A stretch of DNA of 64,000 nucleotides, taken from the NCBI RefSeq assembly GCF_003334385.1, contig NZ_QOWN01000007.1; one strand, written 5' to 3'. Both the position numbers and the translations under genes were made by a program. The notes beneath the pieces were generated by a model that was given only the letters and a program-made list of their open reading frames with translations, ran no database searches and was not told where the DNA came from. Source of the DNA: Escherichia coli. GTDB lineage: Bacteria > Pseudomonadota > Gammaproteobacteria > Enterobacterales > Enterobacteriaceae. Positions 55,529 through 57,525 of the stretch are shown here, piece after piece; the first letter of the stretch is position 1; each line of letters opens with the position of its first letter.

Positions 55529-57525
55529 ATTCACTACGTCCGGAATTATTAGAACTGACACCGCAGGCCCTGACGGCGTTAAGCAATGCCGGTTTTGTTA
55601 AGCGCAGTCTTAAGGAGCTGGAAAATGGCAACGTCCCGGAGATCAGCCATGAGAACGACGCTTTAATCGCCACCTTCAGTGACGGTGTCCGTACCCAGCT
55701 GGCGAACGGCCAGGCACTGAAAGAGGCTCAGTGCAGTTGCGGGGCCAACGGTATGTGCCGTCATCGCGTGATGCTGGTGTTAAGTTATCAACGACTTTGT
55801 GCCACCACTCAGTCTACGGAAAAAGAAGAAGAGTGGGATCCGGCAATCTGGCTGGAAGAACTGGCTACCCTTCCCGATGCTACCCGCAAACGCGCACAGG
55901 CGCTGGTCGCTAAAGGCATCACCATTGAGTTGTTCTGTGCGCCGGGTGAAATTCCCTCTGCCCGCTTACCGATGAGCGATGTGCGTTTTTATTCCCGCAG
56001 CAGTATTCGTTTCGCCCGTTGTGATTGTATTGAAGGCACACTTTGCGAACATGTCGTACTGGCGGTACAGGCCTTCGTCGAGGCCAAAGCGCAGCAAGCA
56101 GAATTTAACCATTTAATCTGGCAGATGCGCAGCGAACACGTCACATCATCTGACGATCCGTTTGCCAGCGAAGAAGGCAACGCGTGTCGTCAATATGTTC
56201 AGCAATTAAGCCAGACATTATGGCTTGGCGGCATCAGCCAGCCGCTCATCCATTACGAGGCAGCATTCAACCGCGCATTGCAGGCGGCAGAGACCTGCAA
56301 CTGGCGCTGGGTGAGTGAATCGCTACGGCAACTGCGCGCCAGCGTTGATGCCTTCCACGCCCGCGCCAGCCACTATAATGCCGGAGAATGCTTACATCAG
56401 CTTGCGGCATTAAACAGTCGATTAAATTGCGCACAAGAGATGGCCCGGCGCGACAGTATTGGTGAAGTTCCTCCTGTGCCGTGGCGCACGGTCGTTGGCT
56501 CTGGCATTGCCGGAGAAGCAAAGCTTGATCATCTGCGGCTGGTGTCTTTAGGTATGCGTTGCTGGCAGGATATTGAGCATTATGGTTTACGCATCTGGTT
56601 TACCGATCCCGACACCGGCAGTATTTTGCACCTTTCGCGCAGTTGGCCGCGAAGTGAACAGGAAAACTCACCGGCAGCTACGCGTCGGCTGTTTAGTTTT
56701 CAGGCTGGCGCACTGGCGGGCGGGCAAATTGTTTCACAAGCAGCAAAACGCAGTGCCGATGGCGAGCTGCTGTTAGCTACCCGCAACCGCTTAAGCAGCG
56801 TTGTGCCGCTGTCGCCTGATGCCTGGCAAATGTTGAGCGCGCCGTTACGCCAGCCGGGCATTGTGGCTTTGCGGGAATATTTACGCCAGCGTCCCCCCGC
56901 CTGCATACGGCCTCTTAATCAGGTCGATAACTTATTTATTCTGCCGGTCGCTGAGTGTATTTCGCTCGGTTGGGACAGCAGCCGCCAGACGCTGGATGCG
57001 CAGGTCATTAGCGGCGAAGGGGAAGATAATGTGCTGACGTTATCATTACCAGCCTCAGCCAGCGCACCTTATGCCGTTGAACGCATGGCGGCGCTTTTGC
57101 AACAAACAGACGACCCCGTGTGTCTGGTTTCTGGCTTTGTCAGTTTTGTTGAAGGGCAATTGACACTGGAACCACGGGTGATGATGACAAAAACCCGTGC
57201 CTGGGCGCTGGACGCAGAAACTACGCCTGTGGCACCGCTACCTTCTGCCAGCGTTTTGCCTGTGCCGTCTACTGCTCATCAGTTGCTGATACGCTGCCAG
57301 GCGTTACTTATTCAACTGCTCCATAACGGCTGGCGCTATCAGGAACAGAGTGCTATTGGTCAGGCAGAGTTGCTGGCGAATGACCTCACCGCGGTGGGTT
57401 TTTATCGGCTGGCACATGTGTTGGGACAATTTCGTAATACAGAAAGCGAGGCACGGGTAGAAGCAATGAATAACGGTGTTTTGCTTTGCGAACAATTATT
57501 CCCCATGCTTCAGCAACAAGGATGA
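55525..57525 (+). CDS. yehQ: SWIM zinc-finger protein YehQ
   Basis: ORF 55501..57525; start chosen at ATG 55525 overlapping the yehP stop (ATGA); two CxC-x5-CxH motifs (CSCGANGMCRH, CDCIEGTLCEH). Confidence 0.8.
   Translation: MNSLRPELLELTPQALTALSNAGFVKRSLKELENGNVPEISHENDALIATFSDGVRTQLANGQALKEAQCSCGANGMCRHRVMLVLSYQRLCATTQSTEKEEEWDPAIWLEELATLPDATRKRAQALVAKGITIELFCAPGEIPSARLPMSDVRFYSRSSIRFARCDCIEGTLCEHVVLAVQAFVEAKAQQAEFNHLIWQMRSEHVTSSDDPFASEEGNACRQYVQQLSQTLWLGGISQPLIHYEAAFNRALQAAETCNWRWVSESLRQLRASVDAFHARASHYNAGECLHQLAALNSRLNCAQEMARRDSIGEVPPVPWRTVVGSGIAGEAKLDHLRLVSLGMRCWQDIEHYGLRIWFTDPDTGSILHLSRSWPRSEQENSPAATRRLFSFQAGALAGGQIVSQAAKRSADGELLLATRNRLSSVVPLSPDAWQMLSAPLRQPGIVALREYLRQRPPACIRPLNQVDNLFILPVAECISLGWDSSRQTLDAQVISGEGEDNVLTLSLPASASAPYAVERMAALLQQTDDPVCLVSGFVSFVEGQLTLEPRVMMTKTRAWALDAETTPVAPLPSASVLPVPSTAHQLLIRCQALLIQLLHNGWRYQEQSAIGQAELLANDLTAVGFYRLAHVLGQFRNTESEARVEAMNNGVLLCEQLFPMLQQQG

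Follow-up and report, generated by a model that had tools for sequence, protein, structure and literature searches.

Introduction

The closest described counterparts of the system considered here are the pairs formed by a MoxR-type AAA+ ATPase and a VWA-domain protein, namely RavA-ViaA, CbbQ-CbbO, CoxD-CoxE and NorQ-NorD, with Midasin as the fused eukaryotic form. A pair of the same kind is encoded by yehL and yehP, which lie in a 64,000-nucleotide stretch of the Escherichia coli chromosome (contig NZ_QOWN01000007.1 of assembly GCF_003334385.1), referred to below at its full length as the window. As in the described pairs, the genes of the yehL module are adjacent and translationally coupled, and YehP is a CoxE-type VWA protein with a metal-ion-dependent adhesion site (MIDAS). 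Unlike them, the module includes three obligatory, large and conserved extra partners, YehI (DUF4132), YehM (DUF5682) and YehQ (SWIM-OB), and the Walker B motif of YehL contains Glu-Glu, not Asp-Glu. One of the seven MoxR subfamilies is named after YehL, its type member (PMC3893208). Our subject is YehQ and its two CxC-x5-CxH motifs. With a probability of roughly 0.55, we consider YehQ to be the zinc-scaffolded adaptor of a MoxR-VWA remodeller, in which the motifs would be structural zinc sites of a duplicated N-terminal module.

The SWIM annotation of YehQ is already known: RefSeq calls it a "SWIM zinc finger family protein", and the K-12 record already reads "SWIM zinc finger domains-containing protein YehQ". 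Solved members of the SWIM domain family (PF04434) include those of human ZSWIM8 (PDB 9rwz) and yeast Shu2 (PDB 6dex). In ZSWIM8, the nearest solved structure, the zinc-binding SWIM domain acts as 'central organizer' of a protein-protein superdomain, and function depends on it (PMC13083262). Set beside these proteins, YehQ contains a tandem pair of SWIM units, either of which forms part of a larger duplicated module of ~90 residues with its own N-terminal helices and sheet; its partners are bacterial MoxR/VWA proteins, not cullin or Rad51-paralog machinery, and its Pfam scores are weak. The protein also invites comparison with the tandem OB-fold domains that bind single-stranded DNA (ssDNA) in RPA70 (DBD-A/B), Teb1 (AB) and POT1, to which the identity of YehQ is 8-14%, with marginal E-values and low template modelling scores. 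Its second OB fold is acidic on average, and its first has two conserved tryptophans (W374, W434).

Two SWIM modules in tandem at the N-terminus of YehQ

The yehQ coding sequence occupies positions 55525..57525 of the plus strand (666 residues plus stop). Its start (MNSLRPELL...) at 55525 is that of the RefSeq annotation on an identical sequence, the N-termini of homologs align to it, and the ATG overlaps the stop codon of yehP as ATGA. Of 5426 complete E. coli genomes, 5362 contain a match to the open reading frame, and strain 203740 is among those whose copy is 100% identical. A first-pass annotation of the window had read two CxC-x5-CxH motifs in the product, and both are indeed in frame, although they had been placed 2 nt too high: QCSCGANGMCRH is read in the yehQ frame at 55729-55764 and RCDCIEGTLCEH at 56017-56052, whereas 55731-56054 translated exactly gives an out-of-frame product with stops. 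In the numbering of the 666-residue RefSeq protein, direct reading identifies the ligands of site 1 as C70, C72, C78 and H80 (CSCGANGMCRH, 55732..55764, plus strand), and direct reading together with conservation identifies those of site 2 as C166, C168, C174 and H176 (CDCIEGTLCEH, 56020..56052, plus strand). These two sites are the only matches to the pattern C.C.{5}C.H in all six frames of the window, in 200 shuffles of which the mean number of matches was 0.115 and the maximum 1.

Conservation of the motifs goes far beyond chance. An exhaustive HMMER search over 1.8 billion cluster representatives returned relatives of YehQ in 872 clusters at 50% identity (261 of them with E <= 1e-30), so that on the YehQ family alone the earlier statement that SWIM fingers are rare in bacteria looks overstated. 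Among 117 full-length homologs that share 25-48% identity, 105 carry both motifs, and each of the eight ligand positions is at least 90% conserved in the family alignment. The ligands of site 1 are kept in every homolog that covers the region and are never lost. Site 2 is absent from 11 of 118 homologs, in all of which the four ligands are gone together, as would be expected of a unitary metal site. In one metagenomic or actinobacterial homolog of 857 residues (P0146), SWIM module 1 occurs three times in tandem, the copies being nearly identical, ahead of a module 2 whose ligands are lost; the copy number of the module may therefore vary, or this sequence may be an assembly artefact.

Both motifs are SWIM-type fingers, as the first-pass annotation proposed, and the internal duplication, the predicted topology and the conservation bear this assignment out; fold and conservation support it more than the Pfam score does. 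Precomputed PF04434 labels are nonetheless present on many YehQ orthologs. Module 1 comprises residues 1-98 (55525..55818, plus strand) and consists of helices, three strands, the CxCx5CxH site and a long helix, and module 2 comprises residues 99-195 (55819..56109, plus strand) and has the same topology, both being delimited by AlphaFold2, Pfam and hhalign. When the family profiles of residues 1-98 and 99-195 were compared, hhalign gave a probability of 96% (E 2e-9, 87 columns) and paired residues 8-97 with residues 106-193, ligand upon ligand. We therefore conclude that YehQ contains a tandem duplication of a SWIM-containing module of ~90 residues. An AlphaFold2 model of full-length YehQ, built from a 118-sequence alignment, has a mean predicted local distance difference test score (pLDDT) of 93.9 and a predicted template modelling score (pTM) of 0.92, and a separate model of residues 1-198 (pLDDT 95.2) agrees with it. 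In site 1 the strands at residues 39-60 are followed by a helix at 79-93, and in site 2 the strands at 132-166 by a helix at 175-190, all with pLDDT above 90, so that at both sites a small sheet precedes a helix that starts at C-x-H. Two features of the SWIM family are present, the CxCxnCxH signature and a strands-then-helix topology in which the helix starts at the second pair of ligands, and the model resembles the solved SWIM domain of ZSWIM8 upon structure comparison. The two sites would bind zinc, for which the joint loss of all four site 2 ligands in 11 homologs is indirect support.

Helical bundles and OB folds in the remainder of YehQ

Beyond the two SWIM modules, the AlphaFold2 model lays out YehQ as a helical bundle, two OB folds and a second helical bundle, all encoded on the plus strand. 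The first bundle covers residues 196-315 (56110..56469) and contains an invariant R299. OB-fold 1 is assigned to residues 316-440 (56470..56844; the fold itself spans about 330-430) and OB-fold 2 to residues 441-565 (56845..57219; the fold itself about 468-562), and both have the strand order beta1-3, helix, beta4-5, so that the model shows what marks membership in the OB class, a barrel of five strands in which a helix separates beta3 from beta4. The C-terminal bundle (residues 566-666, with helices at 583-665; 57220..57522), delimited by the model, by conservation and by comparison with K-12, is the least conserved part of the protein. Across the family, OB1 has a slightly positive mean charge and conserves R338, R345, R372, R387 and R409 along with W374 and W434; OB2 is acidic, with a mean net charge of -1.6.

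No catalytic motif was recognised in YehQ. NCBIfam has no family for YehQ, YehM, YehI or YehK, and PDB sequence searches with YehQ, an N-terminal profile of YehQ, YehM and YehI returned no matches. A protein that lacks a catalytic signature and is built from zinc-stabilised modules, bundles and OB folds fits the role of an adaptor or recognition subunit.

A conserved five-gene module around a MoxR/VWA pair

A scan of a genome collection for related loci, with a 13-sequence alignment as the query, returned 80 loci (L004-L083) from Enterobacterales, Xanthomonadales and many Betaproteobacteria (Massilia, Variovorax, Acidovorax, Burkholderia and others), as well as from two Deltaproteobacteria, Rhizobium and Agrobacterium, and Actinobacteria (Mycolicibacterium, Mycobacterium, Propionibacteriaceae). 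Nearly all loci with sufficient flanking sequence contain homologs of all five proteins (YehI, YehL, YehM, YehP and YehQ), and in every such locus the VWA gene yehP is linked to the MoxR gene yehL. Because YehI accompanies YehL, YehM, YehP and YehQ across the loci, the functional unit is one of five genes, yehI plus yehLMPQ, and not the yehLMPQ module of the first-pass annotation. No sixth conserved gene was found beside the module among the 80 loci: YehK is limited to Escherichia, and YehR to Escherichia and Klebsiella. The order L-M-P-Q is constant except in Rhizobium and Agrobacterium, where yehI lies between yehM and yehP. Elsewhere the position of yehI varies, mostly upstream and in Burkholderia downstream, and the gene often has two or three tandem or flanking DUF4132 paralogs (L018, L078, L007-L009, L019-L023, L034, L040).

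The two engine genes have retained the residues typical of their families. yehL (51021..52109, plus strand) is assigned to the MoxR-type AAA+ ATPases by its motifs, its place in a named subfamily and its PDB sequence matches, which are to the AAA domains of Midasin and to MoxR 2r44; its NCBIfam matches, to GvpN and McrB, are weak. The Walker A motif (GEPGTAKS), sensor-1 N203 and R218/R219 are invariant in 75 sequences. The product of yehP (54392..55528, plus strand) matches the CoxE-type VWA model from end to end (Pfam VWA_CoxE, E 3e-72) and, weakly, a cobaltochelatase subunit in NCBIfam; its MIDAS is intact (DxSxS...T...D), and these residues are invariant in 78 sequences.

A candidate adaptor and the alternatives

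We suspect that the five proteins would act as one machine, in which YehL and the MIDAS-bearing YehP would form the conserved engine and the three large subunits YehI, YehM and YehQ would be attached to it as accessories. Support for a shared machine comes from the linkage of the five genes over the 80 loci and from the stop and start codons of yehM/yehP and yehP/yehQ, which overlap. Proteins in which YehP and YehQ are fused also occur in databases; we did not use them as evidence of an interaction, as they resemble frameshift artefacts (P0181, for example, has a low-complexity junction). The SWIM zinc sites, which lie at the junction of a small beta-sheet and a long helix, are likely to be structural. 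Since the SWIM domain of ZSWIM8 is an organiser, the SWIM modules of YehQ are, by analogy, most likely rigid docking surfaces for partners (YehP, YehL, YehM or YehI). The OB folds would hold the cargo or ligand, either a segment of protein or nucleic acid, and ATP hydrolysis by YehL would then remodel whatever they hold. What the data show are the motifs with their conservation and duplication, the fold, the gene linkage and the intact ATPase and MIDAS motifs; docking partners, cargo and role in the cell are inferred.

Several points weigh against this adaptor model. Which subunit the SWIM modules would dock to is a guess. Literature searches on yehL, yehM, yehP, yehQ, DUF4132 and DUF5682 found no experimental work on the five proteins, and their useful yield was an H-NS microarray paper and MoxR reviews in which the YehL subfamily is named; the appearance of YehQ in a crosslinking mass spectrometry paper was set aside because the protein serves there as an entrapment-database decoy, and a butanol-tolerance paper lists yehQ constructs and nothing more. 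The Walker B motif of YehL, VRFEEITR (residues 153-160), has Glu-Glu where Asp-Glu is usual, a substitution invariant in 75 sequences, so that ATPase activity is presumed and not certain. A profile search with PF04434, suggested in the first-pass annotation, did match both SWIM sites, though weakly: site 1 had an independent E-value of 0.0013 (18.6 bits) and site 2 one of 0.21 (11.6 bits), which alone is not significant, and across the YehQ family 79 of 118 sequences match at E <= 0.1 and just 8 of 118 at E <= 0.001. Finally, the structural matches of the OB folds, marginal as they are, are ssDNA binders, and SWIM module 1 has a conserved basic cluster (R5, K26, R27, K30, R79, R81). Direct nucleic-acid binding by the OB folds or by SWIM module 1 is possible for these two reasons, and with it the binding of ssDNA or RNA by YehQ; since the matches are marginal and OB2 is acidic, it is a hypothesis and not a result.

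The alternative that follows from these last points, which we regard as unlikely yet credible, is that YehQ is a nucleic-acid sensor whose OB folds, perhaps aided by the basic face of SWIM module 1, would bind ssDNA or RNA, and that the module is a surveillance or conflict NTPase system, anti-phage for instance. The first-pass annotation had taken the SWIM motifs as support for an action on DNA, a step that the SWIM domain of ZSWIM8, a zinc-binding organiser of protein-protein contacts and not a nucleic-acid contact, does not warrant (PMC13083262); the only hint of nucleic-acid binding is the pair of OB folds elsewhere in YehQ, which that annotation had not noticed. The conserved arginines and tryptophans of OB1, its positive mean charge and the matches to ssDNA binders all favor a sensor, but the E-values are marginal, OB folds also bind proteins and sugars, and OB2 and YehQ as a whole are acidic to neutral. 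While the engine is conserved, YehQ and YehI change rapidly from phylum to phylum and also among E. coli genomes, yet the gene-wide ratio of nonsynonymous to synonymous substitution rates (dN/dS) points to purifying and not diversifying selection. The extra paralogs and the pseudogene copy of yehI would suit a conflict system, as would the patchy phyletic spread (YehL is 71-75% identical between E. coli and Mycobacterium), the silencing of the operon by H-NS (PMC3686432) and the AT-rich spacer upstream of yehL. In E. coli, however, the locus belongs to the core genome (the 5362 of 5426 genomes given above) and has a fixed chromosomal context, the module is rare on plasmids and does not occur in genuine phage genomes, PADLOC-DB v2 gave no match to YehI, YehK, YehL, YehM, YehP or YehQ at E <= 0.01, and domain searches of the module proteins found no nuclease or other effector domain. 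We are more doubtful still of the idea that yehI-L-M-P-Q represents a new class of five-component MoxR/VWA surveillance machine, a conflict or defence system lying silenced in the E. coli core genome. If it were true, recognition of a variable target (foreign nucleic acid or protein) would fall to the fast-evolving YehQ and YehI, and the response would be carried out by the conserved YehL/YehP engine, perhaps with YehM acting as a hydrolase.

Metal-centre maturation is the task of many MoxR-VWA pairs (CoxD/E, NorQ/D, BchI/D), and by analogy at the level of the family the module could mature a metal cofactor or metalloenzyme in the manner of CoxD/CoxE or of the chelatases, with the Cys3His sites of YehQ carrying or delivering metal transiently. 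We consider this improbable. The CoxE-type VWA domain of YehP and its weak match to a cobaltochelatase subunit are in keeping with it, and the old name of yehH, molR, presumably ties DUF4132 to molybdate metabolism, a weak point in its favor. No target metalloenzyme gene is conserved beside the module, however, which has no sixth conserved gene at all, and a CxCxnCxH site that packs at the N-terminus of a helix is typically one for structural zinc. The loss of site 2 in a subclade that keeps the rest of YehQ likewise fits a structural better than a catalytic or transfer role. Very much less probable is the view that the motifs, instead of being functional zinc sites, are cysteine patterns that arose by chance or remain as relics while an H-NS-silenced gene decays. 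Decay might be read from the premature stop in K-12 yehQ, the neighbouring yehH pseudogene, the insertion sequences (IS) found in yehM and yehP of some strains and the low Pfam scores, but the conservation of eight ligand positions, at least 90% among homologs of 25-48% identity from different phyla, already effectively refutes it. The dN/dS of about 0.1, the abundance of the full-length allele (11,049 member sequences), a chance expectation of 0.1 motifs per window and the structural match to ZSWIM8 speak against it as well.

As annotation the SWIM motifs bring nothing new, and it is the five-gene context that we find of moderate interest. The domain map of YehQ (SWIM modules, OB folds and helical bundles, two of each) and the membership of yehI yield concrete hypotheses, on docking and on ssDNA binding, for a module that about 99% of E. 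coli genomes possess and that occurs in several phyla.

Evolutionary rates, alleles and dispensability

To describe how the five genes evolve, we took the identity of the distant loci to E. coli, the share of E. coli records below 95% nucleotide identity, and dN/dS computed gene-wide against other Escherichia species. YehL has a median identity of 75% (1.9% of records below the limit; dN/dS 0.02-0.06) and YehP one of 68% (0.06%; 0.04-0.08), followed by YehM at 46% (1%; about 0.09), YehQ at 35% (35%; 0.08-0.11) and YehI at 33% (39%; 0.16-0.18). All five genes are under purifying selection, with YehQ and YehI less constrained and not demonstrably diversifying; positive selection on yehQ or yehI is rejected at the gene level by values of 0.08-0.18.

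The window carries the common full-length yehQ allele of 666 residues. In K-12 MG1655 the gene (L084, 14101-15945) has a premature TAA at codon 615, where the window reads GAA (E615, 57367-57369), and its product loses the last 52 residues, with 2 mismatches in 2126 nt relative to the window. Since the K-12 gene is truncated and the window allele common, K-12 may be a poor model for the operon, and because the operon is silenced by H-NS in addition, standard K-12 screens may have missed its phenotype. IS903B, IS5 and IS1203 interrupt yehP, yehM or yehQ in some strains (NZ_CP135649.1, NZ_CP137737.1, NZ_CP114132.1), so that the operon is dispensable under at least some conditions. The only full-length match to YehQ in a phage record is in VT1-Sakai (AP000400.1, 919-2919), where yehP and yehV are annotated too; we discounted it as a phage-borne copy, since it is chromosomal flank inside a prophage record.

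Neighbouring genes and regulation

The gene order in the window is yehH (pseudogene)-yehI-yehK-yehL-yehM-yehP-yehQ-yehR, after which yehS, btsR and btsS follow on the opposite strand. yehI (46704..50336, plus strand) encodes a DUF4132 protein of 1210 residues (Pfam E 5e-47), and the upstream DUF4132 copy, E. coli yehH (before 46704), is a frameshifted pseudogene. yehK (50397..50714, plus strand) is a lineage-specific accessory open reading frame of 105 residues, seen in Escherichia loci only and outside the conserved module. In one Xanthomonadales/Lysobacterales lineage, rpoH, the gene for the heat-shock sigma factor, is the next gene downstream after the yehQ homolog, in the same orientation (L040, 12245-13162; also L046, L049, L056, L060, L069 and L074), an adjacency that is lineage-specific and so probably just synteny.

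yehM (52120..54399, plus strand), which shares 8 nt with yehP, encodes a DUF5682 protein of 759 residues, identified by annotation and by Pfam (E 3e-98). Its N-terminus (52120-52730) has the invariant residues G8-x-x-H11, E35, R175-E176 and G199-G-x-H202. By eye, E. coli YbaP (TraB/GumN) presents G38-H41, E67, R228-N229 and G249-H252 in the same order and at near-equal spacing. There are hints that this N-terminus may adopt a TIKI/TraB-like hydrolase fold. For YehM as a candidate member of the TraB/PrgY/GumN (TIKI-like) hydrolases, hhalign against YbaP gave no support, with a probability below 1% from shallow profiles, and we retain the idea as a lead and no more. One of 25 sequences had a weak Pfam match to Erythro_esteras (E 0.058), and the matches of the N-terminal profile to the PDB, designed TIM barrels only, were dismissed as spurious.

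The 50300-51100 interval stands out by its base composition, as yehK and the 306-bp spacer between yehK and yehL have a GC content of 0.39-0.43, against 0.53-0.60 from yehL to yehQ. In hns/stpA mutants yehL and yehM are both derepressed, and an intergenic region close to them is reported to bind H-NS (PMC3686432). The spacer itself (GC 0.39) contains back-to-back promoter-like sites at about 50770-50820, one of which, found upstream of yehL in a consensus scan, reads TTGCAA-17 nt-TATAAT (50792..50820, plus strand) and agrees with the consensus at 10 of 12 positions.

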